Assembly: GCA_034722015.1 (NCBI GenBank)
Contig: JAYENI010000088.1
Span: 30,574 to 94,573, forward strand
From: Pseudomonadota bacterium
Lineage (GTDB): Bacteria; Pseudomonadota; Gammaproteobacteria; JAJDOJ01
Direction: 5' to 3'
DNA: 64,000 nucleotides
Of this stretch, positions 10,863 to 36,648 are shown one piece after another; positions within the stretch are counted from its first letter, which is position 1, and the number at the start of each line of letters is the position of its first letter. The notes beneath the pieces are model-generated. The model did no database searches. It worked only from the letters and a program-made list of their open reading frames with translations, and was not told the origin of the DNA. Position numbers and translations under genes: made by a program.

Positions 10863-12269
10863 TCAAAGGGCTTCCGAGGCGAAGTCCGCGAGACGGGACC
10901 GTTCACCGCGCAGCAGGGTGATGTGTCCTGCGTGGGGCCATCCCTTGAAGTGGTCGACGACGTAAGTCAATCCGGAAGTCGTTTCCGTCAGGTAGGGTGT
11001 GTCGATCTGGGCGATATTGCCGATGCACACGAGTTTGGTTCCCGGCCCCGACCGCGTAATCAGTGTCTTCATCTGCTTCGGCGTGAGGTTCTGCGCCTCG
11101 TCGAGGATGATGTAGCGATTCAGGAAGGTTCGACCCCGCATGAAATTGACGGAGCGGATCTTGACCTTGCTGAGCACGATGTCGTTGGTGGCGGCACGCC
11201 CCCACTCGCCGCCTTCCCCTTTCTGCGTCAGCACCTCCAGGTTGTCCATCAGGGCGCCCATCCACGGTGTCATTTTTTCTTCCTCGGTCCCGGGGAGAAA
11301 ACCGATGTCCTCGCCGACCGGGATGGTGATGCGCGTCATGATGATTTCACGATATCTTTGTTCGTCGAGCGTCTGCGCCAGCCCGGCTGCCAGGGCCAGC
11401 AGGGTCTTGCCGCTGCCGGCGACGCCAACCAGGGAGACGAAGTCGATATCGGGATCGAGTAGAAGATTCAGCGCGAAATTCTGTTCGCGGTTGAGTGCCG
11501 TCACACCCCAGACACTGTGTCTGGGCTCAGTGTAGTCGTTGGCGTATTCGATGACGGCGTGGTCAGCTGCCACGTCACGTACAATTGCGCCGAATGGCTC
11601 CGCTCCCTCCAGGCTGAGGCAGAGGTTGGGAGTCCAGCTTGCCGCCAGTGGACCCTTGATTCTGTAGTAGGTATGGCCTTGTTCTTTCCAGGACTCCATC
11701 TCTTTACCGTGGGTCTCCCAGAAGTCGTCGGGAAGCTCCGCAGTGCCGCTGTACAAAAGGTCCACGTCCTCGAGGACCTGGTCGTTGTAGTAATCCTCGG
11801 CGTGAATCCCCAGGACTGCCGCCTTGATGCGCAGATTGATGTCTTTTGATACCAGCGTGACATGGGTCTGCGGGGAGTTCCCGCTAAGCGCCAGTGCAAT
11901 GCCGAGAATGGCATTGTCGGGTGTCGTGCCGGGCAGGCTGTCCGGCAATTCCACCGGTTGTTCCCGGGTTTGCAGAAAGAGTCTGCCACTGGCCTTGCCG
12001 GGGACCTCACCTATCTCACTGATCCGCAGGCCCTGCGTGATCTCGTCGCGGTTCCGGCCGGTGGTCAGTGCGTCGATGATCCTGCTGGCCTGGCGTACGT
12101 TGCGCGCCACTTCCGACACCCCTTTCTTGGCCTGGTCGAGTTCCTCGAGCACGACCATGGGCACGTAGATGTCGTGGCGTTTGAAACGGTACAGCGCCAT
12201 CGGGTCATGCATCAGGACATTCGTGTCAATGACAAAAAGGCGGTTCTCGGTGGTTGTTTTTTCAGGCAT
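10863..12269 (-). CDS. PhoH2-type protein: N-terminal PIN nuclease domain fused to a PhoH-like ATPase/helicase domain (YlaK-like)
   Basis: N-terminus LFVIDTNVLMHDP (PIN), central Walker A VGVAGSGKT, PhoH-family C-terminus. Confidence 0.85.
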   Translation of the reverse strand: MPEKTTTENRLFVIDTNVLMHDPMALYRFKRHDIYVPMVVLEELDQAKKGVSEVARNVRQASRIIDALTTGRNRDEITQGLRISEIGEVPGKASGRLFLQTREQPVELPDSLPGTTPDNAILGIALALSGNSPQTHVTLVSKDINLRIKAAVLGIHAEDYYNDQVLEDVDLLYSGTAELPDDFWETHGKEMESWKEQGHTYYRIKGPLAASWTPNLCLSLEGAEPFGAIVRDVAADHAVIEYANDYTEPRHSVWGVTALNREQNFALNLLLDPDIDFVSLVGVAGSGKTLLALAAGLAQTLDEQRYREIIMTRITIPVGEDIGFLPGTEEEKMTPWMGALMDNLEVLTQKGEGGEWGRAATNDIVLSKVKIRSVNFMRGRTFLNRYIILDEAQNLTPKQMKTLITRSGPGTKLVCIGNIAQIDTPYLTETTSGLTYVVDHFKGWPHAGHITLLRGERSRLADFASEAL

Positions 12270-12551
12270 GGCGTCTCACGGAAGGGATCGAAAACACAGG
12301 GAGCGTTCGGAATTTGGCGGTCCTGTTCCGGGTGTGTGACCCCGGCATCAGTGTCTTTCGGGTCTGCCCCCGTCGACGAGCGGGACTGGAGGGCACGAGT
12401 GATCCGCCGGGCCAGCGCCACGCGGAACAGGGGATACGCCCGTATTCCTGGATAAATCATGTGGTGCCCTCGAGGCAGCGCGACAAGCCGGAGGCGCCCG
12501 ACGGTTCCCGTCACCAATTACCCCGCCATACCACGCGTCCCAACGCATGGT

Positions 12552-13085
12552 TCAGGGAACCTTGATTGGCTCCAGGACACCGTCCAGGTTCAGTTCGTCG
12601 CAAAGATCCATGAATTCCTCCCGCAAGTGCGCAATGTGCAGCGAGGAAGGCACTTCAATCGTCATCCGGATTGTCAGCATGGGGGTAGCGGTGTGGGCCG
12701 CATGATAGGTGCTGGTGACCATGTCCTGGATATTGATGCCCCGGGTCGCCAGGAAGGCCGCAACCTGATTCACGATGCCGGGTTGGTCGAGGGTGACCAC
12801 ATCGAGGGTGTACGGCAGCATTCGTTCTTTGGACTTGCGCTGCTCGGTATTTCTCGAGGTAATGGTCAGGTTGAGCGGCCCCTGCAGCGCGGCTAGCGCG
12901 TTCTCCAGTTTGGCGAGATTGTTCCACTGGCCGGAGACGAGCTGGATCAGTGCAAACGATCCGCCGAGCACGGACATCCTGCTGTCTTCGATGTTACAGC
13001 GGTGTCCCGTCACGGTGGCCGAGAGTTTTTCCACGGTCCCCGCACGATCTTCGCCGATTGCCGAAATGACCAGATAATTCGCCAT
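12552..13085 (-). CDS. gcvR: glycine cleavage system transcriptional repressor GcvR (tandem ACT domains)
   Basis: 177 aa beginning MANYLVISAIGEDRAGTVEKLS (ACT); divergent from dapA as in E. coli gcvR-dapA-bamC. Confidence 0.75.
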   Translation of the reverse strand: MANYLVISAIGEDRAGTVEKLSATVTGHRCNIEDSRMSVLGGSFALIQLVSGQWNNLAKLENALAALQGPLNLTITSRNTEQRKSKERMLPYTLDVVTLDQPGIVNQVAAFLATRGINIQDMVTSTYHAAHTATPMLTIRMTIEVPSSLHIAHLREEFMDLCDELNLDGVLEPIKVP

Positions 13086-13270
13086 GCCCGATTCCGATAC
13101 GCTCACAAGTGCCTCAAGGTTACCAGTATTCAGGGTGTCCATAAACGGAAACTCGCGCTTGACGCACCGTTGCGGATTCCTGTCGGCCGGCCCTCCGGTA
13201 TGACCTCCGGTTTGCTTGTCAAGCCATACGGCCAACAGTACCATGGCTTGAATTTTTTGCGGAGAGGCCA

Positions 13271-14152
13271 ATGTTTCACGGCAGCATCGTTGCCCTGGTG
13301 ACACCCATGTCGGGGGACGGCGCAATCGACAACAGGGCGCTTGATGAGCTGATCGAGTTTCATATTGAGAGCGGTACCGATGGTATCGTTCCCGTCGGGA
13401 CGACCGGCGAATCCGCCACACTGGACCACGAGGAACACTGTGCAGTCATCCGGCGAGTCGTCGATCGGGTCGCCGGTCGTATACCGGTGATCGCGGGCAC
13501 GGGCGCGAATGCGACCAGTGAGGCGATCGAATTGACTCGGTGTGCCATGGAGGTGGGTGCCGATGCCTGTCTGCTCGTCACACCGTATTACAACAAGCCC
13601 ACCCAGGAGGGGCTCTACCGCCACTACAAGGCCGTGGCGGATGCAGTTCCCGTTCCGCAGATCCTTTACAACGTGCCGGGAAGGACGGCTTGTGACATGC
13701 TTCCCGAAACCGTTGAGCGTCTGGCCGGGTTGCCGAATATCGTTGGCATCAAGGAAGCCACGGGAGATCCCGCGAGATCGAAGGAGATCGCCGGGCGATG
13801 CGGAGACCGGCTTGACGTATTTAGTGGAGATGACGCTGTCGCGAGGGAGATTATACTTGGCGGCGGCAAGGGCGTGATCTCTGTCACCGCCAATGTGGCG
13901 CCGGCCGCGATGCGAGCGATGTGTGAAGCCGCGATCCAGGGGGATGCGGAGCGGGCGCTGGCACTCGACGGTCCTTTACTTGGTCTTCACCGCGATCTTT
14001 TCCTCGAGTCGAATCCTATCCCGGTGAAATGGGCCCTGGGTGAAATGGGGCTCATTCCCCGGGGTATTCGTCTGCCGCTGACACCATTTTCGGATACGTT
14101 TCAGCCGCGTCTCAGGCAGTCCATGATCCAGGCCGGTCTCCAGGTGGCATAG
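13271..14152 (+). CDS. dapA: 4-hydroxy-tetrahydrodipicolinate synthase
   Basis: MFHGSIVALVTPM....GTTGESATL... DapA signature; 293 aa. Confidence 0.95.
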   Translation: MFHGSIVALVTPMSGDGAIDNRALDELIEFHIESGTDGIVPVGTTGESATLDHEEHCAVIRRVVDRVAGRIPVIAGTGANATSEAIELTRCAMEVGADACLLVTPYYNKPTQEGLYRHYKAVADAVPVPQILYNVPGRTACDMLPETVERLAGLPNIVGIKEATGDPARSKEIAGRCGDRLDVFSGDDAVAREIILGGGKGVISVTANVAPAAMRAMCEAAIQGDAERALALDGPLLGLHRDLFLESNPIPVKWALGEMGLIPRGIRLPLTPFSDTFQPRLRQSMIQAGLQVA

Positions 14153-20328: not shown

Positions 20329-20748
20329 ATGTCACTGAAAGGCTCAAAAACCGAGCAGGCTCTCAAGGACGCATTTGCTGGCGAGTCACAGGCCAATCGC
20401 CGCTACCTGTATTTCGCATCCAAGGCCGACGTCGAGGGTTACAACGATGTAGCCGCCGTGTTCCGTTCCACTGCCGAGGGCGAGACCGGGCATGCACATG
20501 GTCACCTGGAATATCTCGAGGAATGCGGTGACCCCGCCACGGGGCTGCCTTTCGGGCCGACCGACGAGAATCTGAAGACCGCGATCGCCGGTGAGACCCA
20601 TGAGTACACCGACATGTATCCCGGCATGGCCAAGGGCGCGCGCGACGAAGGTTTCGACGAGATTGCCGACTGGTTCGAGACCCTGGCAAAGGCCGAACGG
20701 TCCCACGCCAATCGTTTCCAGAAAGCTCTGAATACTCTCGGCGACTAA
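20329..20748 (+). CDS. rubrerythrin-family diiron protein (ferritin-like domain only, no rubredoxin domain)
   Basis: 139 aa with three E-x-x-H diiron motifs ([25 protein letters not shown]). Confidence 0.8.
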
Positions 20749-20761
20749 ACCCGCGTCGGAC

Positions 20762-20796
20762 GGGAAACGGGGCCGCTGAACCGGCCCCGTGTTCCC
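20762..20796. terminator. strong GC hairpin (gggaaacggggccg-ctgaa-cggccccgtgttccc) downstream of the rubrerythrin gene
   Basis: about 14-bp stem with one bulge, read directly; no clean U-tract, so it may be a partial terminator or attenuator before the CCG Fe-S gene. Confidence 0.4.
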
Positions 20797-20912
20797 CCGA
20801 TCTTTCCGGGCTACGGTTCCGGGACCTTGACAACCGGTTACCGCGCCTTTGGCATCGCTGGTATCGTATGCGTGGCGACGTTGTATCGACTAGATCAGAG
20901 GCTTTAGAGACT

Positions 20913-22259
20913 ATGGCGACACCGACCGAGGGGCAGCGTGAAGGCAGCCTGGAGGCGCCTACACGACACCCGCTGGATTGGCGCAATCCGGAGTTCTTTG
21001 ACGAGGGCTCGTTGTTTTCGGAACTGGAGCGTATCTACGAAATATGCCACGGTTGTCGTCGTTGCGTCAGTCTGTGCAACTCTTTCCCGACGCTGTTCGA
21101 TCTCATCGACGAGTCGGAGACCATGGAAGTCGATGGCGTCGACAAGAAAGACTACTGGCAGGTTGTGGATCACTGCTACCTGTGTGACCTCTGTTATCTG
21201 ACGAAGTGTCCCTACGTGCCCCCTCACAAGTGGAATGTCGACTTTCCCCACCTGATGCTGAGGGCCAAGGCGGTCAAATATAAAAAGGGTGACGTCAAGC
21301 GTCGCGACAGGATACTTACCTCGACGGATACCGTCGGGCGGCTTGCGGGCATTCCGGTCGTGGTCCAGGCGGTCAATGCCGCCAATCACAACGGCGCGTC
21401 GCGCAAGCTGCTGCGGAAGACACTCGGCGTACATCCCGATGCGATCTTGCCCGAGTACCATTCGAATACCGCGCGAAAGCGCCTGTCGGGGAATCTCGGT
21501 TCTGCCGCCAACCCCGTACCGTCGGGCAGGACGCGGGGGCGTGTCGCCCTGTTCGCGACCTGTTACGGCGACCGCAACGAGCCGCAGGTAGTCGAGGATC
21601 TGGCCAGGGTTTTCGAACACAACGCAATCGAAGTGACGCTGGCTGACAAGGAACGATGTTGCGGCATGCCCAAGCTGGAACTGGGGGACCTGGAAGCAGT
21701 CGAGGTGGCAAAGGAGGCCAACATACCGGTGCTGGCGCGCATGATCGACGAAGGCTGGGACATCGTGGCGACTGTTCCGTCCTGCGTGCTGATGTTCAAG
21801 CAGGAACTCCCGCTGATGTTCCCCGACGATGAGGAAGTCGCCAGGGTTCGGGATCATTTTTTCGACCCGTTCGAGTACCTGATGATCCGTCATGCCGACG
21901 GCAAGCTGAACACCGACTTCAAGAACGCGCTGGGCAAGGTCGCGTATCACGCTGCGTGTCACCTGAGGGTCCAGAAAATCGGGCTAAAAACCCGGGACCT
22001 GCTCAATCTCGTCCCGGGCACGGAACTCGACGTGATCGAACGCTGTTCCGGACATGACGGGACCTATGCCGTCAAAGAGGAGTATCACGAGATATCGATG
22101 AAGATCTGCCGCCCGGTGGTCAATCGTGTGAAGAAGGCGCAGGCCGACCACTACTCGAGTGACTGCCCGATGGCCGGGCACCAGATCGAGAATGGTCTGA
22201 GGGACGGCAGCACACCCGAACATCCACTGTCGCTGCTGCGGCAGGCCTACGGGATTTGA
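20913..22259 (+). CDS. Fe-S oxidoreductase, HdrD/GlpC/GlcF-like: two 4Fe-4S ferredoxin motifs plus two CCG domains
   Basis: CHGCRRCVSLC and CYLCDLCYLTKCP ferredoxin motifs; CCG domains (..ATCYGDRN...ERCCGMP and ..AACHLRVQ...ERCSGHDG). Confidence 0.8.
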   Translation: MATPTEGQREGSLEAPTRHPLDWRNPEFFDEGSLFSELERIYEICHGCRRCVSLCNSFPTLFDLIDESETMEVDGVDKKDYWQVVDHCYLCDLCYLTKCPYVPPHKWNVDFPHLMLRAKAVKYKKGDVKRRDRILTSTDTVGRLAGIPVVVQAVNAANHNGASRKLLRKTLGVHPDAILPEYHSNTARKRLSGNLGSAANPVPSGRTRGRVALFATCYGDRNEPQVVEDLARVFEHNAIEVTLADKERCCGMPKLELGDLEAVEVAKEANIPVLARMIDEGWDIVATVPSCVLMFKQELPLMFPDDEEVARVRDHFFDPFEYLMIRHADGKLNTDFKNALGKVAYHAACHLRVQKIGLKTRDLLNLVPGTELDVIERCSGHDGTYAVKEEYHEISMKICRPVVNRVKKAQADHYSSDCPMAGHQIENGLRDGSTPEHPLSLLRQAYGI

Positions 22260-22279
22260 TCAAACCAGGGACATGACAG

Positions 22280-22573
22280 ATGGCAAACGAAGGCTTCCAT
22301 GAATCGATCGACGAACTCTCGGACGAAACGCGCGACATGCATCGTGCGATTGTCTCCCTGATGGAAGAACTGGAGGCCGTGGACTGGTACAACCAGCGGG
22401 TCGACGCCTGTCGGGACGAGGAGCTGCGCGCCATTCTCGCCCATAATCGTGACGAAGAGAAAGAGCACGCGGCCATGGTGCTGGAATGGATCCGGCGGCG
22501 CGATCCGTCCATGGACAAGGAGTTGAAGGATTATCTGTTTACCGAAGGTTCCATCGCCTCACTGGAGCACTAG
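22280..22573 (+). CDS. EncFtn-like (encapsulated-ferritin-like) mini-ferritin, about 97 aa
   Basis: HRAIVSLMEELEAVDWYNQRVDACRDEELRAILAHNRDEEKEHAAMVLEWIRRRD closely resembles the metal-binding core of the Rhodospirillum rubrum EncFtn as I recall it (the E...EEKEH motif); no encapsulin shell gene is adjacent. Confidence 0.6.
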   Translation: MANEGFHESIDELSDETRDMHRAIVSLMEELEAVDWYNQRVDACRDEELRAILAHNRDEEKEHAAMVLEWIRRRDPSMDKELKDYLFTEGSIASLEH

Positions 22574-22838
22574 TGCTCTATCCAGGCGATAATTACGGAT
22601 TCAGCGTTCCCCTGGTGTTTCGCAGTAAGGCGCAGCGTGCAGGCAATGGTCATTCCCTTGTCAAACGCTGCAACGCGGCTGCGGGACACCAGGGGAGCGC
22701 CCGGAGGGTTAGCTTGTCATCGCCCATGGACGGTGTTGCGCCGCTTGGAAAGGGAGCGGCCATTCCCGGCGAGGCGCGCCTTGCCATGCGCGCTGGCAAG
22801 CTTAACTGAACTCGCAATTATCACCTGGATAGAGCACT
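22572..22838. mobile_element. MITE-like element, copy A1 (about 267 bp) with 14-15-bp terminal inverted repeats (a)gtgctctatccagg / cctggatagagcac(t), flanked by TA...TA
   Basis: Inverted termini read directly; a second, shorter copy with the same termini is at 37728-37850; the left TA of the flank forms part of the TAG stop of the upstream gene. Confidence 0.6.
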
Positions 22839-22852
22839 AAGGACTGATACCG

Positions 22853-23437
22853 ATGGACAAGTTGAAACGCGAAGACCTCTATTCCCTGGAAAAGTATTCC
22901 GAGATACGGTCCGAATTCCGAAAGGGGGTTATCGCGCACAAGAAGGTCCGGCTGGTGCATGTCGGTCCCAATGTCACGATACATTTCGAAGACCAGCTGG
23001 TCATGCAATACCAGATTCAGGAAATGCTGCGCGCGGAGAGGATTTTCGAGGGTGAGGCGATCCAGGAAGAGCTGGATGCCTACAACCCGCTGATCCCGGA
23101 CGGGTCCAACTGGAAGGCAACGCTGATGATCGAGTTCGATGACGAGGACGAACGTCGGCGTCAGCTGGCCCAGCTCAAGGGTCTTGAGGCCGCGACCTGG
23201 GTTCGCGTCGGGACGCAGGACAAGGTTCACCCGATTGCGAACGAGGACCTGGAGCGCGAGACCGAGGAAAAGACCTCCTCGGTCCATTTCCTGCGGTTCG
23301 AACTGACGCCCGAAATGGTGGCCCAGGCAAAGGGTGGGGTCCCGATCGGCGTCGGTATCGATCACCCGAAATACGAGCATGAGATAGTCGCGGTGTCCGA
23401 GCCCGTACGGACTTCCCTGGTCAACGACCTCGACTGA
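22853..23437 (+). CDS. uncharacterized conserved protein (194 aa; possibly a DUF3501-type partner of the rubrerythrin / CCG Fe-S genes)
   Basis: ORF with good coding appearance, no catalytic motif recognized. The DUF3501 assignment is from memory of that family co-occurring with rubrerythrin and HdrD-like genes; unverified. Confidence 0.5.
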   Translation: MDKLKREDLYSLEKYSEIRSEFRKGVIAHKKVRLVHVGPNVTIHFEDQLVMQYQIQEMLRAERIFEGEAIQEELDAYNPLIPDGSNWKATLMIEFDDEDERRRQLAQLKGLEAATWVRVGTQDKVHPIANEDLERETEEKTSSVHFLRFELTPEMVAQAKGGVPIGVGIDHPKYEHEIVAVSEPVRTSLVNDLD

Positions 23438-23472
23438 TCCCGAAGCCATCCGGCATCCGCCGGACGGATACG

Positions 23473-25437
23473 CTATTTCCCGCCGCCCAGTCGTTTCTCC
23501 AGCAGCTCGCCCAGGCTCGCGATCGTTGGATGATCGAACAGGTCCGTGACGTCGATGGTCTCGGGAAAGGCTATCTCGATGCCTTCGTGTATCCGGGCCA
23601 GTTCGAGTGAACTCGTTCCGATGTCGAACAGGTTGTCTGCGATGCCCACGTCCTTTCCTTCCAGAACCTCGTCGCAGACGGCCTTGAGCTGGCCCTCGAT
23701 CTTCGTCAGGTCCTGGTCGTAACCTTCCTTCGGGGCCAGCGAGATTTCCTCGAGTCGGGCCAGGACATCGGCGAAATCACCGCCGCGGTAGGCTTCGACC
23801 AGCAAGTGCCGCTGGACCTTGCCACTGGTGGTCTTCGGGATCCGCTTCACCGGGATGATGTGCAGGGCCTCGAGACCGGTGTGTGCATTGAGCACGGCAT
23901 GGACTTCGCGGGCGATCCCCGTCACGTCTTGGACGTTCCCCTTATGCAGCAGGAAGACGAGTAACTCGTCGCTGTCACTCCCGTGCGGACGCCATGCCGC
24001 CGTCACGATCTTTCCGAGCTCGATCCCTGTTTCCCGCTCCACGATGGACTCGAGGTCGTGCGGGTAATAGTTTTGCCCGTTGGCGAAGATGATTTCCTTG
24101 GATCGCCCGGTCACTACCAGACCGCAATCCGTCGTGAATCCAAGGTCGCCCGTATCGAGCCATCCGTCCGGTGTGAACGCCGCGTGGTTCGCCTCGTCAT
24201 TACGGAAATAGCCCCTTGTCACGTTTGCGCCACGGATCTGGATATGGCCCACGCTCCGCTCGGGCAGGGTCGTGCCCGACGCGTCGCAGATCCGCATCTC
24301 GCAGCCCGCGACCGGCTGGCCCGTGCAAACCAGCGACAATGCCGCGGGATCGTCCCCGTTTACGATTTGCACGCCGGTCCCGGTCTGCAAGCTGTCGCGC
24401 TCGACGCTGACCGGCGTGATGCCCGTGCCCACCGCGGGGAAAGTGACCGCAAGGCTGGCCTCGGCCAGGCCGTAGACGGGAAACATGCACGACGGGTCGA
24501 GACCGTGCGGCGCCAGCGCTTCGAGGAACTCCCGGCACAGGTCGACAGAAATAGGTTCAGCACCGTTGATGATCAGGCGTATACGATTCAGGTTCAGTTC
24601 CCCGGGTGGATGCTTCCCAAGCGCCCGGAGTAGGTGCTTTAAACCGAAATTGGGCGAGCAGGTCACGCTGACGCCCAGCTCGGCGGACTTCTCGAGCCAC
24701 AGCAACGGGCGGCGGACAAACAGGTCGGTGGGCATCAGGCAGTGGTCCGCACCGGTGGCCAGGGGTGTGAGATGAAACCCGATCAGCCCCATATCGTGTG
24801 TCAGTGGCATCCAGCTCAGCCCCCTGTCCTGCCCGCTCACCCGGATGCCGGCGGCGATGGCATGAATGTTGGCGAGAATATTTTCGTGACTCAGCACCAC
24901 GCCCTTGGGCTCGCTGGTCGATCCTGATGAGAACTGGATGAAGGCGGTGTCCGCGGGGGCGGCGCTGTGCAGACGCCCCTGAGCGCCAGACAACACTACG
25001 TTTCCCGACTCGATAGTGCGTGATGACAACACCTCCGGGACCGCATCTTCTCCCGCCTCGTTTTCCAGGGTGCCGAGCCGTTTCAGGGTACTGGCGTCGG
25101 TGAAGAGCCAGGGGTCGGACAGCATCCGGAATATACGAATCAGCTTGAATCTGTGCTCGTCGCTGATGCCAGGCGCGACGGGTACGGGTACGATCCCGCC
25201 CAGGATGCAGGCCCAGAACGCGTAGAGGAATGGTTCGTTGTCGTTGACATGTATAATCAATTCGCTCCCCGGCCCTAGTCCCCGGGTCTGCAGTGCGTAC
25301 AGCAGGGCGCTTGCGCGGGTATGGAGTGCTGCGATCGGCATTTCCTGCGACCGTTCCGCGCCCGTCAACAGAATGATCCGGCCCTCCCCCCCGGCCCTTT
25401 CCGCCAGTGCTTGCGTCAGTGTTTTGAAGTTTGTCAT
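23473..25437 (-). CDS. fatty acyl-AMP ligase (AMP-binding adenylation domain) fused to a C-terminal acyl/peptidyl carrier protein domain (FAAL-ACP)
   Basis: AMP-binding motifs FSSGSTSEPKGV, YGLAEAS, DTGDLG, and KTTSGKVQR; C-terminal PP-binding motif DNLFDIGTSSLELARI (serine attachment site); start at 25437 (MTNFKT). The upstream extension in the track has no homology. Confidence 0.85.
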   Translation of the reverse strand: MTNFKTLTQALAERAGGEGRIILLTGAERSQEMPIAALHTRASALLYALQTRGLGPGSELIIHVNDNEPFLYAFWACILGGIVPVPVAPGISDEHRFKLIRIFRMLSDPWLFTDASTLKRLGTLENEAGEDAVPEVLSSRTIESGNVVLSGAQGRLHSAAPADTAFIQFSSGSTSEPKGVVLSHENILANIHAIAAGIRVSGQDRGLSWMPLTHDMGLIGFHLTPLATGADHCLMPTDLFVRRPLLWLEKSAELGVSVTCSPNFGLKHLLRALGKHPPGELNLNRIRLIINGAEPISVDLCREFLEALAPHGLDPSCMFPVYGLAEASLAVTFPAVGTGITPVSVERDSLQTGTGVQIVNGDDPAALSLVCTGQPVAGCEMRICDASGTTLPERSVGHIQIRGANVTRGYFRNDEANHAAFTPDGWLDTGDLGFTTDCGLVVTGRSKEIIFANGQNYYPHDLESIVERETGIELGKIVTAAWRPHGSDSDELLVFLLHKGNVQDVTGIAREVHAVLNAHTGLEALHIIPVKRIPKTTSGKVQRHLLVEAYRGGDFADVLARLEEISLAPKEGYDQDLTKIEGQLKAVCDEVLEGKDVGIADNLFDIGTSSLELARIHEGIEIAFPETIDVTDLFDHPTIASLGELLEKRLGGGK

Positions 25438-25642
25438 CTTTACGTGAGAGCGGAATCGGTAGTTTGAGGCCGTCGAGGGTGGTCGGGTATCGCGGCCTGC
25501 CTGGGCACGTACGGAGCCGTGAACGCGGGGCCCGCGCGCAGGTGCGGTTTTCAACGGGAATATTTTGTGCCTGGCAAGTATACGACGATGACAGGAGGTG
25601 TCGCGAGCGGCGGGCCTGGCCAGATGACGGGGCGGTCTGTCC

Positions 25643-26344
25643 GTGGCTGAGATGGCGGACGACATCGGGTTGCCGTTACACAAGCGATTGCTCTTTCCTG
25701 TCCTCGCGCCGCTTGCCGCCTGGTTGCTGAGGTTTTTCTGGTTCGTTTGCAGGGTACGGCGAATCGAGGGCGAGGAACATCTCGAGGCGCTGAATGCGGG
25801 GGGCGCCATCATCCCCTGTCACTGGCACCAGCGGCATATCTTCTGTGCGTACTATCTGGTCCGAAAACTGTCCGGCAAATACAGGATCGGATACCTTGTG
25901 AGTCCCTCCAAGGACGGGGACCTCGGGGCCATGATCCTGAGGCGACTCGGAGTGATACCGATCCGTGGATCGGCGAACCGCACGGGCGCCCAGGCCATCC
26001 GCGACATGTACCTCTGCCTCTCTCGGGACGGGGTCTCGCCCGTACTGACTCCGGATGGTTCCGAGGGGCCGATCTACAAGTTCAAGCCGGGGCCGGTGAT
26101 GCTGGCGCAATTGTCCGGGGCGCCGCTGGTCCCGATGAGCTACGCCGCGCGCAGCGCGTGGACGCTCAATTCCTGGGACCGGTTCATGATCCCGAAACCG
26201 TTCACCCGCGTGGCCATCGTGATCGGCCGGCCCCGCTACGCGGAAAAGACCGGCAGGCTGGACGGGACCGGTTCCCTGCAGGAGCAGATGGAACAGGAGC
26301 TGAACCGGCTGGGGATGGAGGCGGAGGCGGCCCTGGACGCCTGA
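25643..26344 (+). CDS. DUF374-type lysophospholipid-acyltransferase-superfamily protein
   Basis: 233 aa; the N-terminal hydrophobic segment and the GG.IIPCHWHQRHIF...GSANRTGAQAIRDM region look like DUF374/LPLAT; divergent from FAAL-ACP. Confidence 0.65.
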   Translation: MAEMADDIGLPLHKRLLFPVLAPLAAWLLRFFWFVCRVRRIEGEEHLEALNAGGAIIPCHWHQRHIFCAYYLVRKLSGKYRIGYLVSPSKDGDLGAMILRRLGVIPIRGSANRTGAQAIRDMYLCLSRDGVSPVLTPDGSEGPIYKFKPGPVMLAQLSGAPLVPMSYAARSAWTLNSWDRFMIPKPFTRVAIVIGRPRYAEKTGRLDGTGSLQEQMEQELNRLGMEAEAALDA

Positions 26345-26348
26345 CAGG

Positions 26349-26480
26349 CTGTTGCAAAACTCTCATGCGGCACCATTCGGCGTTAAAATCGGGCTCCGAA
26401 TGCTCATTTACTGCGAGTAAACTGCGCTTCCTCACCCGATATTGCCTTGCCAGGCACTCACCTGAGACTTTTTCAACAGC
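26349..26480. repeat. intergenic repeat family B, copy B1 (about 132 bp); inverted relative to copy B2
   Basis: Reverse complement aligns at about 75-80% identity with 37858-37988 (shared blocks such as GAGGAAGCGC.GTTTAC.CGCAG.AAA and TTTAACGCC.AATGGTGCCGC.TGAG). Confidence 0.55.
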
Positions 26481-26503
26481 CGGCTGGCTGCCGGCGTTGC
26501 AAG

Positions 26504-27862
26504 TCATTCGAGTGATCGCAGATGGTCGATCGCCTCGATCAACCGGTTTGCGGTAAGCACCTTGAGTTTTCCGCTGCTGCTCCTGGGGGCGTTTGCCCCG
26601 GGGACGAGGGCATAGCGGAAACCGTGTGTCTCGGCCTCCGCCAGCCGCTCCTGACCGTTGGGCACGGGCCGGATTTCCCCCGCAAGGCCGAGTTCCCCGA
26701 AGACGACCAGGTCAGCAGGCAGGGGCCGGTCCCGGAAGCTGGACAGCGCGGCCAGCACAACGGCCACATCGGCCGCCGTCTCGGTCACGCGGACGCCCCC
26801 CACCACGTTCACGAAGACGTCCTGATCGACCATCGGTATGCCGCCGTGGCGGTGCAGTATGGCGAGCAGCATCCCGAGTCGGTTCTGGTCGAGGCCAACC
26901 GAGACCCGCCTGGGGTTGGCGAGGTGGCTCTCGTCCACCAGCGACTGTATCTCCACCAGCATGGGGCGGCTCCCCTCCCGCGTCACGACGATGACGCTCC
27001 CCGACACCGGCGCCTCGTGCCGGGAAAGGAAGATCGCGGAGGGGTTGCCCACTTCCCTGAGCCCCGATTCGCTCATCGCGAACACACCGATTTCGTTGAT
27101 CGCGCCGAACCGGTTCTTGACCGCGCGCAGGATCCGGTATCGCCCTCCCGGGTCCCCCTCGAAGTAGAGTACCGTATCCACCATGTGTTCGAGCACCCGG
27201 GGGCCGGCCAGCGCCCCCTCCTTGGTGACGTGTCCGACGAGAAAGATGGTCGTGCCGCTGGTCTTGGCGAACCGTACGAGTCGGGCCGCGCTTTCCCTTA
27301 CCTGGCCGACGGATCCGGGTGCCGACTGAAGGTTGTCCGAGAACAGGGTCTGGACCGAGTCGATCACCGCGAGGCGGGTACGCTCGCGGGCCAGTACTTC
27401 GATGATCCGCTCCACGCTGGTTTCGGTGAGCAGTCTGAGATGCGGCGCCTCGAGCCCCAGTCTTCGGGAACGCAGGGCGATCTGTCCGGCCGATTCCTCC
27501 CCGCTGACGTAGAGATTCGAGTGCTGGGCGACCGTGGCGAGCATCTGCAGCAGGAGTGTCGATTTACCGATGCCGGGGTCACCACCGATCAGAATCACCG
27601 AGCCTTCGACGATGCCCCCGCCGAGCACCCGGTCGAGTTCCGCGATGTGGCTTGGAACGCGGGGTTCCTCACCGGAAGTGACCGACGAAAGCGCCACCAC
27701 GGCGGTGTTCCCGGACCCGGTCCAGCCGCCACGCCGGTCTTGCCGTGCAGGCGCGATCTCCTCGATGACGTTCCATTCCCCGCAGTCGGTGCACTGTCCG
27801 GACCACTTGCTATGCGATGCCCCGCACGAGCCGCATTGATAGGCTGGTTTCGTCCTGGCCAT
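26504..27862 (-). CDS. radA: DNA repair protein RadA/Sms
   Basis: N-terminal zinc finger YQCGSCGASHSKWSGQCTDCGEW, Walker A GDPGIGKST, Lon-like C-terminal domain. Confidence 0.95.
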   Translation of the reverse strand: MARTKPAYQCGSCGASHSKWSGQCTDCGEWNVIEEIAPARQDRRGGWTGSGNTAVVALSSVTSGEEPRVPSHIAELDRVLGGGIVEGSVILIGGDPGIGKSTLLLQMLATVAQHSNLYVSGEESAGQIALRSRRLGLEAPHLRLLTETSVERIIEVLARERTRLAVIDSVQTLFSDNLQSAPGSVGQVRESAARLVRFAKTSGTTIFLVGHVTKEGALAGPRVLEHMVDTVLYFEGDPGGRYRILRAVKNRFGAINEIGVFAMSESGLREVGNPSAIFLSRHEAPVSGSVIVVTREGSRPMLVEIQSLVDESHLANPRRVSVGLDQNRLGMLLAILHRHGGIPMVDQDVFVNVVGGVRVTETAADVAVVLAALSSFRDRPLPADLVVFGELGLAGEIRPVPNGQERLAEAETHGFRYALVPGANAPRSSSGKLKVLTANRLIEAIDHLRSLE

Positions 27863-33801: not shown

Positions 33802-36648
33802 TTACGTCCCGGGCTCTTCTGCCGGGCCGGGTTTCGCGGGCAGCGGGCCGACGTCATCGTCTGAATCGTTTCGTCCCGCTCTCGAATCGGGTTCCGCAGA
33901 ACAGATCATCCTGAAAAACGCCTCGGCGGTTACCGGCCTTCCGAAGTGGAATCCCTGGAACACGTGGCACCCGCGTTTCTTCAGGAACTCGAACTGATCC
34001 TCGGTCTCGACGCCTTCGGCGACAGCTTCCAGCCCCAGATGTCCGGTGATGGAGATGATGGTTTCCACGATAGCGGCGTCCTGTGCGTCGGTCGAGATGT
34101 CCCGGACGAAGGAGCGATCGATCTTCAGGATATCCAGCGGCAGACGCTTGAGATAGGTCAGTGACGAATATCCGGTACCGAAATCGTCGATAGAAAGGTG
34201 CAGACCGTAGCGCTTCAGCCGGCGCATCTTGTGAATGATCTCGTCCAGATCGCCGAGAAGGGCGCCCTCGGTGATCTCGATTGTGATACGACTCGAGTCG
34301 ACCCCCGTTTCCTCAATGATTGAGGCGACGCCATTGACGTAGTCGTTCTGACGGAATTCGATCGGGCTGACGTTGATCGCCAGATAACGCATGCCGTCTT
34401 GACATTCACCGGTCTCCATCCAGCGCTTTAGCTGGAGACAGGCCTGGCGCATCACCCACCGGCCAACATGTAGTATCAGCCCCGTTTCCTCCGCCACGGG
34501 GACGAAACTGGCCGGTGGCACGGGTCCCCGGACAGGGTGGTCCCAGCGGAGCAGGACCTCCGCACCCACGATGTCGCCGGAGGCCTGTACCAGAGGCTGA
34601 TAGCTCAGGGATAGCTGGTCTTCGTCCAGCGCGTCGCGTAACTGGCTTTCCAGCGACAGGCGATGGTCCGCCTCTTTCTGCATTCCCGGCTCGAAGAAGC
34701 GGGTCCCGTTTCCACCGGCGTGTTTCACCTTGTACATGGCGGCATCGGCGTTGCGCAGTATGTCTTCGGACTGGCTACTGTCATCGGGAAACAGGGAGAT
34801 GCCGATGCTGGCCGTGACCTGGTAACGGTGCCCGCCGAGTTCAAAGGGTTCGGCGAGTGCCCGGCGGAGCTTGTCGGCAACGGCACGCACATCGGCGCCC
34901 GAATTCCCGGGTCCCGCGCCGAGTTCCGGCAGCACGACCACGAACTCGTCACCACCGATTCGCGCCACGCTGTCCTCGGCCCGCAGTGACCCGACCAGTC
35001 GCCGTCCTGCCTGGCGCAGCAGCTCATCGCCTACTGCGTGTCCCAGGGCGTCATTCAGCGTCTTGAAGCGATCGAGGTCGAAAAACAGTACCGCACCCTT
35101 TTTCGAATGCCTTGCCGCGAGTTGCATGTCGTGTTGCAGCCGGTCCAGCAGCAGGCGACGGTTGGCCAGACCGGTCAGGGGATCGAAGTAGGCCAGTCGT
35201 TCGATCGCTTCGGCGTCGCGGCGTTTACTGATCCCCATGCTGAGGACGTCTGCGACCTGCTCGAGAAAGGCCTGCTCGTGGGTCGAGTAAGCGTGTCCGT
35301 GGGGCACGTAGAACACCATGGCACCCAGGGTGGTCCGGTTGTCCGCCATAATCGGCACGTTGTAGTGCCCGTGAGGGGCCATGCCGGGGTACCGGGTGAC
35401 GTGGCGATCGTCCACGCAGTTGGCGAATTGCGTGCAGTGTTCCAGCGCCGCGCGTCCGCACAGGCACTGTCCGAACGGGACTTTCGCGCACAATTGCCGG
35501 ATTTCAGGCGCGAGATTGTGGCTGGAAACCAGTCTCAGTTCCTCACCGGTCTCAGTCGCCACGAAGATGCCGGCCTGTGGCAACACCTCCAGCCAGGGAA
35601 TCGCGTGGATCAGGCTGTCGAGCGACTGCTGCAGGAAAATTTCGAGGGGGTGACCTTCCAGGGACAGGCGAAGCAACACGCCCAGTGTCTGTTCCTCCGC
35701 CTCGGAACGGTCGCGCTGCTCGATATTGCCACGGAGTACCCTCGTCCTGCGCTGCAGGACGAGCTCGAATATCAGAAAGAGCAGCAGGATAGCCAGGGCC
35801 GAGCCGATCACGCCCAGCAGTGCCCAGCCGAACCAGCCGGGCCATTCCGAATGGGGCGCCTCGTCCAGCCATTCCTCGAGCAATCCGTAATAGATCGAGT
35901 CCGGATCCGCCTTGAGGTCTCCCAGGCGTCTGTCGATAGCCGCGACCAGCTCCGCACCGCCGGCCTTGTCCCCGGGCATCGCCAACCTGAGTCCTACGGG
36001 ATTGAAGATGACGGGCGTCCGCTCGATACCGCTTGACCTGCTTTCCGGTCCGGAAAACAGACGGGTTGCCAGGCCTGCGTCCGCATGCCCGAGTGCGATC
36101 GAATCCAGCACCTGGTCGTAGTTTGAGAAATCCCGGAAATCGATGGATATCTCGTAGGCGTCGGCCAGTTCGCGCAGCTTCCGGTAATGTATGTCGTCGC
36201 TGACGACGGCCACCCGCTTGCCGTCGAGGTCCCGGATCGACTCAATCCTGAGTCCGTCGCGCGCGAAGATCTTCCCCCAGTTGATAATGAAATTCCTGCG
36301 GTTGAACCGATAGCGCCGCAGTCGATCCGCATTCACCGCAATGGGTATGAGCAGGTCGATATCACCCGCGTCGAGCATCGCGAGACAGCGGGGAAATTCA
36401 CAGTGTACGTAGTCGAGTTTCCAGCCTTCCCGGGTGGAGATATCGTTGAACAACGCCGGAAGAAAGCCATCGATCTGTCCGGACTGGTCGAGAAAGACCA
36501 GCGGAGGGTTGTCGTATACGCCGATACGGAAGCTGGTATCGGTCCCGGCGCGGGCCGCGAAAGGAGCGGACAATAGCAGTGCTCCCAGCAGCAGCCAGCC
36601 GTAGGCCGGGCCTACCGACTGGCACGTTCGTCTGAATCCGCGTCCCAT
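33802..36648 (-). CDS. sensor protein: signal peptide - 2x periplasmic solute-binding (SBP_bac_3-like) - TM - GAF - GGDEF - EAL (c-di-GMP cyclase/phosphodiesterase)
   Basis: RIGGDEFVV (GGDEF); EAL-domain motifs (EVLLRW, DDFGTGYSSL, QGFHFGRP); GAF region between them; 948 aa. Confidence 0.85.
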   Translation of the reverse strand: MGRGFRRTCQSVGPAYGWLLLGALLLSAPFAARAGTDTSFRIGVYDNPPLVFLDQSGQIDGFLPALFNDISTREGWKLDYVHCEFPRCLAMLDAGDIDLLIPIAVNADRLRRYRFNRRNFIINWGKIFARDGLRIESIRDLDGKRVAVVSDDIHYRKLRELADAYEISIDFRDFSNYDQVLDSIALGHADAGLATRLFSGPESRSSGIERTPVIFNPVGLRLAMPGDKAGGAELVAAIDRRLGDLKADPDSIYYGLLEEWLDEAPHSEWPGWFGWALLGVIGSALAILLLFLIFELVLQRRTRVLRGNIEQRDRSEAEEQTLGVLLRLSLEGHPLEIFLQQSLDSLIHAIPWLEVLPQAGIFVATETGEELRLVSSHNLAPEIRQLCAKVPFGQCLCGRAALEHCTQFANCVDDRHVTRYPGMAPHGHYNVPIMADNRTTLGAMVFYVPHGHAYSTHEQAFLEQVADVLSMGISKRRDAEAIERLAYFDPLTGLANRRLLLDRLQHDMQLAARHSKKGAVLFFDLDRFKTLNDALGHAVGDELLRQAGRRLVGSLRAEDSVARIGGDEFVVVLPELGAGPGNSGADVRAVADKLRRALAEPFELGGHRYQVTASIGISLFPDDSSQSEDILRNADAAMYKVKHAGGNGTRFFEPGMQKEADHRLSLESQLRDALDEDQLSLSYQPLVQASGDIVGAEVLLRWDHPVRGPVPPASFVPVAEETGLILHVGRWVMRQACLQLKRWMETGECQDGMRYLAINVSPIEFRQNDYVNGVASIIEETGVDSSRITIEITEGALLGDLDEIIHKMRRLKRYGLHLSIDDFGTGYSSLTYLKRLPLDILKIDRSFVRDISTDAQDAAIVETIISITGHLGLEAVAEGVETEDQFEFLKKRGCHVFQGFHFGRPVTAEAFFRMICSAEPDSRAGRNDSDDDVGPLPAKPGPAEEPGT

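Follow-up and report, generated by a model that had tools for sequence, protein, structure and literature searches.

Described systems and the locus under study

To our knowledge, the late acylation of lipid A draws on housekeeping acyl-acyl carrier protein (acyl-ACP) or, in Rhizobium and its relatives, on the dedicated carrier AcpXL. In the AcpXL/LpxXL system, a hydroxylated long fatty acid is built by dedicated fatty acid synthase-type enzymes and given by the dedicated carrier to a dedicated lipid A late acyltransferase. We analyzed a 64-kb stretch of gammaproteobacterial DNA (contig JAYENI010000088.1; hereafter the window), in which a gene for a fatty acyl-AMP ligase (FAAL) fused to a carrier domain (FAAL-ACP) lies divergently beside a gene for a DUF374 acyltransferase. 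The pairing of these two genes is not by chance, and the window holds a reduced version of a wider, undescribed four-gene cluster. Unlike in the AcpXL/LpxXL system, the chain would be captured ready-made by the FAAL, in relatives after oxidation by a cytochrome P450.

The characterized DUF374 proteins are LpxJ enzymes, known from Helicobacter, Campylobacter, Wolinella, and Rickettsia as lipid A 3' secondary acyltransferases (PMC6148475). The statement in an earlier note on this DNA that DUF374 has no assigned substrate is therefore out of date. The window protein resembles LpxJ in Pfam family, six essential residues, lack of an HX4D motif, size, N-terminal helix, and lysophospholipid acyltransferase (LPLAT) fold. 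It differs in that it falls in a clade of its own, in almost all cases linked to FAAL-ACP, and in that its donor would be a fused dedicated carrier instead of housekeeping acyl-ACP; its lipid A activity is predicted.

In the AlmEFG system of Vibrio cholerae, an adenylate-forming ligase charges a phosphopantetheinylated carrier, from which a late-acyltransferase-type enzyme adds glycine to lipid A (PMC4278540). The logic of ligase, carrier, and lipid A-type transferase is the same at the locus studied here, and it is similar to that of AcpXL/LpxXL as well, with different parts in each case. However, AlmE is an amino-acid ligase and AlmF a separate small carrier, whereas the window FAAL is fused to its carrier. 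AlmG belongs to the LpxL/LpxM family, whereas the window transferase is a DUF374 protein and the group moved is presumably a fatty acid.

The earlier note had compared the pair to a split Aas. As a functional analogy this comparison stands, because Aas of Escherichia coli likewise adenylates a free fatty acid, holds it as a carrier thioester, and transfers it to a membrane lipid without coenzyme A (CoA). As homology it fails. The acyltransferase of Aas is of the PlsC type with an HX4D motif, whereas DUF374 lacks this motif and the window proteins are separate. The Aas profile PRK08633 gave 97.8 bits against a cut-off of 1221 and matched the adenylation part only, and orthology with Aas was rejected. 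Aas uses free ACP and is partnered with the flippase LplT; no LplT recurred among the cluster flanks.

The FAAL-ACP didomains of HapA, NocH, and AmbG and the loading domain of olefin synthase share the architecture and the FAAL hallmarks of the window protein. These didomains feed modules of polyketide synthases (PKS) or non-ribosomal peptide synthetases (NRPS), whereas the window partner is a lipid A-type acyltransferase. Bacterial FAALs have been said to occur "always" in a PKS/NRPS context (PMC8460268), and a survey of 2026 mentions, without characterizing it, a FAAL clade that occurs together with LPAT/AGPAT-like domains (PMC12820801). Full-text searches yielded no literature linking DUF374/LpxJ with FAALs, or FAAL-ACP with a P450 plus a lysophospholipid acyltransferase. 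In agreement with the earlier note, no paper was found that describes the pair in this arrangement.

Conservation of the FAAL-ACP/DUF374 pair

Homologues of FAAL-ACP are numerous, with at least about 8,000 among the matches scored in the first search. One genome per species was scanned with patterns from the FAAL-ACP alignment. This gave 80 loci with orthologues 45-51% identical, from Steroidobacteraceae, Thioalkalispiraceae, Thiohalophilus, Thiotrichaceae, Endozoicomonas, Panacagrimonas, Burkholderiales and other Betaproteobacteria, and one metagenome-assembled genome (MAG) of Bacteroidota. Linkage was counted where the upstream flank measured 3 kb or more, which applied to 67 loci, all selected by the FAAL-ACP gene only. 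A DUF374 gene, its product 38-51% identical to that of the window, lay within 5 kb in 62 of the 67 loci (93%), Steroidobacteraceae, Thioalkalispiraceae, Thiohalophilus, Thiotrichaceae, and Endozoicomonas among them. Most loci had it in divergent orientation; in eight it shared the strand of FAAL-ACP, and in Endozoicomonas it lay downstream and convergent. When DUF374 was taken as the starting point, homologues at 47% and 41% identity adjoined a P450 gene plus FAAL-ACP, and several further ones came from contigs equal in length to contigs with FAAL-ACP matches; those checked at 33-41% identity were not FAAL-linked. The FAAL-linked DUF374 proteins formed one clade in a neighbor-joining tree (no bootstrap). 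The closest relative was a fully syntenic gammaproteobacterial MAG (locus L001), 76% identical. Thus, the two genes are conserved together elsewhere, and their pairing is not by chance.

These results argue that FAAL-ACP and DUF374 are functionally coupled, which we hold with good confidence. The alternative is that they are independent neighbors, DUF374 being an ordinary LpxJ that draws on housekeeping acyl-ACP and FAAL-ACP serving an unlinked pathway or needing the P450 of the relatives. Characterized LpxJ enzymes are indeed active in heterologous E. coli without a dedicated carrier (PMC6148475), each of the two genes forms a transcription unit by itself in the window, and five of the 67 well-flanked loci have FAAL-ACP but no nearby DUF374. 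However, the 93% linkage extends across several orders and is robust to changes of gene order and orientation, and DUF374 homologues above about 40% identity were FAAL-linked wherever checked. Moreover, the P450 was lost repeatedly while the FAAL-ACP/DUF374 pair was retained, and no alternative acyl-carrier acceptor enzyme is present in the window flanks; only the LpxL/LpxM type recurs in related loci. Independence of the two genes is therefore improbable.

In another locus (L086, 6001-8544), a DUF374 protein 37% identical to that of the window is encoded convergently with a 603-amino-acid AMP-binding/AMP-binding_C enzyme without detectable similarity to the window FAAL at E <= 1e-3. This locus was not counted as an extension of the association, because the enzyme is not FAAL-like and has no carrier domain. 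Here DUF374 may have been paired independently with an acyl-activating enzyme.

Class of the FAAL-ACP protein

The 654-residue protein was compared with FAALs and other adenylate-forming enzymes (positions in Table 1). Its adenylation motifs are intact: SSGSTSEPKG (170-179), YGLAEA (322-327), TGDLG (429-433), GRSKE (444-448), and PKTTSGKVQR with K540, the A10 lysine. The stretch aligned to the FAAL-specific insertion is nearly gap-free, with two single-residue gaps in the row of E. coli FAAL (EcFAAL) and one in that of FadD32. CoA ligases, aryl-AMP ligases, and luciferases aligned only C-terminal to this stretch, and McyG was gapped here. The published hallmarks of EcFAAL are the helix T252-R258, the bulky residues W224, M231, and F279, which block the CoA pocket, and the proline P226 (Patil et al., PMC8460268). 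The equivalent of the helix aligned without gaps and was helical in the AlphaFold2 (AF2) model (H237-242). W209, M216, and F264 of the window protein matched the three bulky residues and P211 matched P226. The helix, the W/M/F pocket residues, and P211 were invariant in 17 homologues. As the earlier note had predicted from the letters, the C-terminal domain is a carrier domain by its PF00550 match (residues 590-646). Its motif DNLFDIGTSSLELARI spans residues 601-616, and S610, which aligns with the serine of GGHS in the adenylation-peptidyl carrier (A-PCP) protein McyG, was likewise invariant in the 17 homologues.

The structural model (mean predicted local distance difference test score, pLDDT, 81) contained four helices over residues 577-651, consistent with a helical carrier domain. 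The top 39 Foldseek matches in the PDB were McyG A-PCP, a keto-acid-selecting adenylation (A) domain, and FAALs (from E. coli, Legionella, a cyanobacterial olefin synthase, and mycobacteria); no CoA ligase was among them. The top NCBIfam match was PRK09192, fatty acyl-AMP ligase, and the best curated profiles are FAAL models, although the scores fell short of their strict cut-offs. By sequence and model, the adenylation domain is classed as FAAL-type, grouping with FAALs and not with CoA ligases. The FAAL-type assignment of the earlier note is borne out accordingly; on comparison with FadD32 and EcFAAL, the insertion is present.

The identity of the two best solved relatives raises the question of a non-fatty substrate. 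McyG accepts phenylpropanoids (its solved complex holds phenylalanyl-adenylate), and the other relative selects keto acids; in addition, a P450 gene stands directly upstream in related loci, so that an oxidized acid is likely there. The A domain might then load an aryl, keto, hydroxy, or dicarboxylic acid and the lipid would receive an unusual acyl group, comparable with the glycine of AlmEFG. Against this, the HDMGL motif, the insertion, the helix, and the W/M/F residues follow FAALs and not McyG or the keto-acid domain, which have PLDH[VI]G. The best curated profile matches are FAALs, and the partner acyltransferase family handles C12-C16 chains. We regard a non-fatty substrate as very improbable and take a fatty acid to be the likelier load.

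Membership of the DUF374 protein in the LpxJ family

The DUF374 protein matched PF04028 with an E value of 1.2e-16 and 60.4 bits against a gathering score of 26.8. In Rickettsia typhi LpxJ, mutagenesis identified W60, H61, D86, D132, W172, and D173 as essential and H84 as dispensable, and the family lacks HX4D (PMC6148475). The window counterparts W61, H62, D91, D138, W178, and D179 were invariant in 22 DUF374 sequences (the window protein and 21 homologues, down to 29% identity), with correspondence to the R. typhi residues judged by motif order and spacing; D91 and D138 correspond to D86 and D132. No aspartate or glutamate stands four residues after H62, and there is no HX4D/E motif. The members encoded in lipid A operons, which are among the 22 sequences, also show the H-x-D of R. 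typhi H84/D86.

The AF2 model (pLDDT 91) had an LPLAT-type core. Its best solved match in Foldseek was the lipid A acyltransferase LpxM of Acinetobacter baumannii (5KNK, E 2e-6), followed by PatA and glycerol-3-phosphate acyltransferases (GPATs), at TM-scores of only about 0.45-0.5. The Kyte-Doolittle profile (19-residue window) reached its maximum of 1.8 at residues 17-35, within the predicted N-terminal helix. By every sequence and structure criterion applied, the protein is an LpxJ-family enzyme with a putative His62/Asp138 dyad.

Two further DUF374 fusions were encountered, P0256 (380 amino acids) and P0359 (458 amino acids). One of them carries an ApeI-like dehydratase domain, and the other has a C-terminal extension of about 230 residues without a Pfam match.

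A four-gene cluster and its reduced form

Clustering of the open reading frames (ORFs) in the flanks showed that only FAAL-ACP, DUF374, a P450, and an Sfp-type phosphopantetheinyl transferase (PPTase) recur across taxonomically diverse loci; LpxL/LpxM-type acyltransferases recur in a part of the loci only (Steroidobacteraceae and Betaproteobacteria). In about 60 of the 80 loci, the gene immediately upstream of FAAL-ACP, on its strand, is that of the P450 (product of about 435 amino acids). The PPTase gene often adjoins DUF374 and was found in at least 35 loci, a lower bound given the divergence of this family. The commonest architecture, DUF374(-) PPTase(-) / P450(+) FAAL-ACP(+), was seen in 28 loci, and the same without a detectable PPTase in 21. 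Seven loci had the bare FAAL-ACP/DUF374 pair, including the window and its closest relative. The ancestral cluster has four genes, DUF374 and the PPTase standing divergently from P450 and FAAL-ACP.

The P450-bearing form spans the whole neighbor-joining tree of FAAL-ACP, and forms without P450 are scattered over four or more separate clades; the window and L001 together make up one of them. The two-gene arrangement of the window is therefore derived and reduced. No P450 or PPTase gene was detected in the 64-kb window by tblastn at E <= 1e-3, and no remnant of either was found in the 205-bp spacer between the two genes.

That at least 35 clusters include a dedicated PPTase speaks for use of the carrier domain as a holo-protein. 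The best solved relatives of the P450 are CYP97, CYP3A, CYP4B1, and CYP102. CYP4 and CYP102 enzymes hydroxylate fatty acids, and the cluster P450 may do the same, which the sequence offers only as a lead. PKS and NRPS genes are absent from the window and from more than 80 related loci. Ketosynthase (KS), condensation (C) domain, and thioesterase genes did not recur in the flanks, with a single exception described below. Because no KS, C domain, or thioesterase recurs, DUF374, together with the LpxL/LpxM type where present, is the only recurrent candidate for unloading the carrier. In the window itself DUF374 is the sole such candidate.

The exception is one metagenomic locus (L085, 1622-2590), in which a 3-ketoacyl-ACP synthase III (KAS III, FabH-like) gene follows FAAL-ACP in a P450/FAAL-ACP/DUF374 cluster. 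The gene hints at cluster variants in which the chain on the carrier is extended or condensed.

A GAF-PAS-GGDEF-EAL protein of about 890 amino acids adjoins DUF374 in 62 related loci (for example L005, 4415-7090), including Thioalkalispiraceae and Thiohalophilus. In the window, the GGDEF-EAL protein (33802-36648) is encoded at a distance of 7.5 kb and its sensor part differs (SBP_bac_3-GAF). In view of this different architecture and distance, the neighbor seen in the 62 loci was not accepted as a fifth component and was treated as lineage synteny; the adjacency may reflect lineage synteny or a regulatory link.

Lipid A as the favored acceptor

A profile search of 1.8 billion representatives returned about 11,000 DUF374 family members. 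Among its top matches were one fusion of DUF374 to the Kdo (3-deoxy-D-manno-octulosonate) transferase WaaA and one to LpxK. The genomic context of seven more distant DUF374 homologues was examined, and three of them sit between lpxB and lpxK, in the order lpxD-lpxC/fabZ-lpxA-lpxB-DUF374-lpxK. These three lpx-operon proteins, together with one other protein (P0192), form the sister group of the FAAL-linked DUF374 clade in the neighbor-joining tree. In addition, a PF03279 gene of the LpxL/LpxM type was present within 1.1 kb of the FAAL-ACP stop codon, usually convergent, in 29 of the 80 loci, and 14 further loci had one 5-8 kb away. The 29 include Betaproteobacteria, whose short flanks show no DUF374. 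Tandem pairs were found in six of the 29 (L008, L009, L011, L018, L037, and L065; about 11950-13830), directly downstream of FAAL-ACP. There DUF374 lies on the same strand as FAAL-ACP, and the arrangement looks like a compact "late acylation" locus.

Four independent lines favor lipid A as the acceptor: it is the object of the sole demonstrated activity of the family, and to this are added the lpx-operon sister clade, the WaaA and LpxK fusions, and the LpxL/LpxM-type neighbors. The earlier note had left a lyso-lipid, lipid A, and a lipoamino acid side by side; among these, lipid A now clearly leads on family function and the gene context of relatives.

The same FAAL-ACP/DUF374 module might serve another acceptor: a lysophospholipid, as in Aas-like repair, a lyso-ornithine or other amino lipid, as with OlsA, or another glycolipid. 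The FAAL-linked DUF374 clade is distinct and only 33-41% identical to the lipid A operon members, there are no lipid A genes around the window pair, and the LPLAT fold is common to PatA, which acylates phosphatidylinositol mannosides, and GPAT. The survey cited above notes a FAAL clade in an LPAT/AGPAT-like domain context (PMC12820801). Set against these points, all characterized DUF374 members act on lipid A, the fusions and operon contexts indicate lipid A, and LpxL/LpxM-type genes abut the cluster in 29 loci. Furthermore, the flanks show no recurrent gene for an LplT-like transporter or an OlsB-like protein, and DUF374 lacks the HX4D motif typical of phospholipid acyltransferases. We consider an acceptor other than lipid A rather unlikely, though less so than independence of the two genes.

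Proposed reaction sequence

With lipid A as the favored acceptor, a three-step sequence can be proposed. The FAAL domain, the class of which was tested above, would adenylate a free long-chain fatty acid without use of CoA. The fused carrier would then receive the acyl group on the phosphopantetheine arm of its Ser610, and for this arm the window module would rely on a PPTase encoded elsewhere. Finally, the membrane-anchored DUF374 protein would take the acyl-S-carrier as donor and, on the cytoplasmic side of the inner membrane, esterify a hydroxyl group of a membrane glycolipid. The likeliest acceptor would be lipid A or a precursor (lipid IVA or Kdo2-lipid IVA), which would gain a secondary acyloxyacyl chain. 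In most relatives, the P450 encoded upstream of FAAL-ACP probably oxidizes the fatty acid first. The window form, without P450 and PPTase genes, would install an unmodified, possibly scavenged, fatty acid.

We give about an even chance to the proposal that the pair is a module, independent of CoA and of AcpP, in which a free fatty acid is loaded and then passed on to lipid A or one of its precursors, an acceptor deduced from the family and from related loci. Several observations weigh against it. Acceptor, donor, and acyl substrate are all deduced. All lines of evidence for lipid A come from relatives or from the family and none from the window itself: no lipid A gene was present among its 30 Pfam-annotated ORFs (about 14-51 kb, housekeeping genes and a polysaccharide region), tblastn revealed no LpxL/LpxM-like sequence in the 64 kb, and no PPTase was found there. 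Much of the LpxL/LpxM neighborhood evidence comes from one family, Steroidobacteraceae, and the LpxL-like neighbors, although lipid A lauroyl-acyltransferase profiles are their best matches, score below the curated cut-offs. The PRK09192 match of the FAAL-ACP protein, at 357 bits, is likewise below its curated cut-off of 600, and its two best-scoring solved relatives activate the non-fatty substrates discussed above. The characterized LpxJ enzymes in heterologous E. coli must draw on the host acyl pool, and use of a large fused carrier as donor would be a novelty in this family. The five FAAL-ACP loci without a nearby DUF374 also count here.

More broadly, the cluster could represent an unrecognized branch of lipid A biosynthesis and remodeling, widespread among environmental Gamma- and Betaproteobacteria. 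In this branch, scavenged or P450-oxidized fatty acids would pass through FAAL-ACP to a dedicated LpxJ paralogue that adds a secondary chain, in some lineages with LpxL/LpxM-type partners, bypassing CoA and the housekeeping ACP. We put this forward tentatively, as somewhat less probable than the two-gene module itself. If true, it would join the FAAL field, centered on PKS/NRPS feeders, with lipid A late acylation and give FAALs a role in envelope biogenesis. Lipid A would gain a CoA-independent uptake of ready-made, possibly exogenous or hydroxylated, fatty acids, and the lipid composition of the outer membrane would be coupled directly to the external or oxidized fatty-acid pool. The proposal provides a testable function for a large orphan FAAL-ACP family and a DUF374 subclade. 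On this basis, unusual lipid A species would be expected in Steroidobacteraceae, Thioalkalispiraceae, Endozoicomonas, and relatives, and the pair is potentially a two-gene cassette for placing chosen fatty acids in lipid A.

Gene boundaries and the intergenic region

The positions of the two genes and of their predicted features are compiled in Table 1. The minus-strand ORF at this locus, as called mechanically, encodes 779 amino acids (23473-25812). It was rejected as the real FAAL-ACP gene, because homologues start at an internal methionine and the extension overlaps the start of DUF374. The best 120 homologues have 644-690 amino acids, nearly all cover 99-100% of the query, and their starts coincide with the internal methionine of MTNFKTL, from which the 654-residue gene was delimited. 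The 125 codons upstream of the true start (25438-25812, minus strand) have no counterpart in homologues; annotation pipelines that take the longest ORF would yield a false protein of 779 amino acids. The earlier note had described a 654-residue minus-strand protein and a divergent DUF374 gene about 200 bp away, and both were confirmed, with a spacer of 205 bp. The FAAL-ACP gene is convergent with a DUF3501 gene (plus strand, 22853-23437) and the DUF374 gene with radA (minus strand, 26504-27862). With convergent neighbors at both outer ends, each of the two genes is therefore monocistronic.

Table 1. Features of the FAAL-ACP/DUF374 locus, in positions of the 64-kb window
Feature	Position	Strand	Details
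FAAL-ACP gene	23473..25437	-	654 amino acids + stop; from translation, Pfam, and homologue starts
Carrier (PP-binding) domain	23500..23670	-	residues 590-646; PF00550, E 5e-8, above gathering score
Ser610 codon	23608-23610	-	aligned to McyG PCP serine
FAAL-specific insertion	24328..24426	-	residues ~338-370; aligned to EcFAAL 3PBK and Mycobacterium smegmatis FadD32
FAAL-specific helix equivalent	24709..24729	-	T237-R243; aligned to EcFAAL T252-R258
AMP-binding core	24205..25335	-	residues 35-411; PF00501, E 5.8e-48
Divergent intergenic region	25438..25642	.	205 bp
Promoter-like block upstream of FAAL-ACP	25575..25609	-	-35 GCGACA, 16 nt, -10 TATACT (25604 to 25577)
DUF374/LpxJ-family acyltransferase gene	25643..26344	+	233 amino acids; GTG start, ATG at 25652; PF04028
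N-terminal hydrophobic helix	25676..25747	+	residues 12-35; AF2; probable membrane anchor
W61-H62	25823..25828	+	residue pair predicted as catalytic base; counterpart of R. typhi LpxJ W60/H61
PF04028 core	25877..26071	+	residues 79-143, with D91 and D138
W178-D179	26174-26179	+	correspond to R. typhi W172/D173

A promoter and terminator scan of 22700-26700 gave a sole sigma-70-like match, the promoter-like site upstream of FAAL-ACP, which taken alone is not above chance. This site coincides with a block of 18 identical nucleotides (GTCATCGTCGTATACTTG, to which TCGCGA is added) common to the spacers of the window and L001. The two spacers otherwise align poorly, and the block is their sole conserved stretch. 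This conservation suggests that the block is a genuine promoter or operator of the FAAL-ACP gene. A GC-rich imperfect palindrome (TGAACGCGGGGCCCGCGCGC / GCGCGCAGGTGCGGTTTTCA, 25520-25553) lies between the promoter-like block and the FAAL-ACP start; it is absent from the spacer of L001, which is shorter.

Surroundings of the locus

The surroundings in the window are housekeeping genes: bamC, folE2, dxs, ispA, xseB, radA, a CNNM transporter gene, sdh/frd, ffh, rimM, trmD, and htpG. On the plus strand at 20329-23437, a four-gene set encodes a rubrerythrin (20329-20748), a CCG-domain Fe-S protein (20868-22259) that resembles GlpC or heterodisulfide reductase, an EncFtn-like ferritin (22280-22573), and the DUF3501 protein. 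The "encapsulin-associated ferritin" matched TIGR04535 above its cut-off, and no gene for an encapsulin shell adjoins it. The same four genes are adjacent in L001, too.

Between about 45500 and 57000, the GC content of the window is 0.51-0.57, compared with about 0.60-0.64 elsewhere. Genes in this stretch encode, among others, a NAD-dependent epimerase/dehydratase, an outer-membrane beta-barrel-like protein, a Wzz/GNVR chain-length determinant, and a ParA/tyrosine-kinase-like ATPase. It is probably a polysaccharide island for exopolysaccharide (EPS) or O-antigen.

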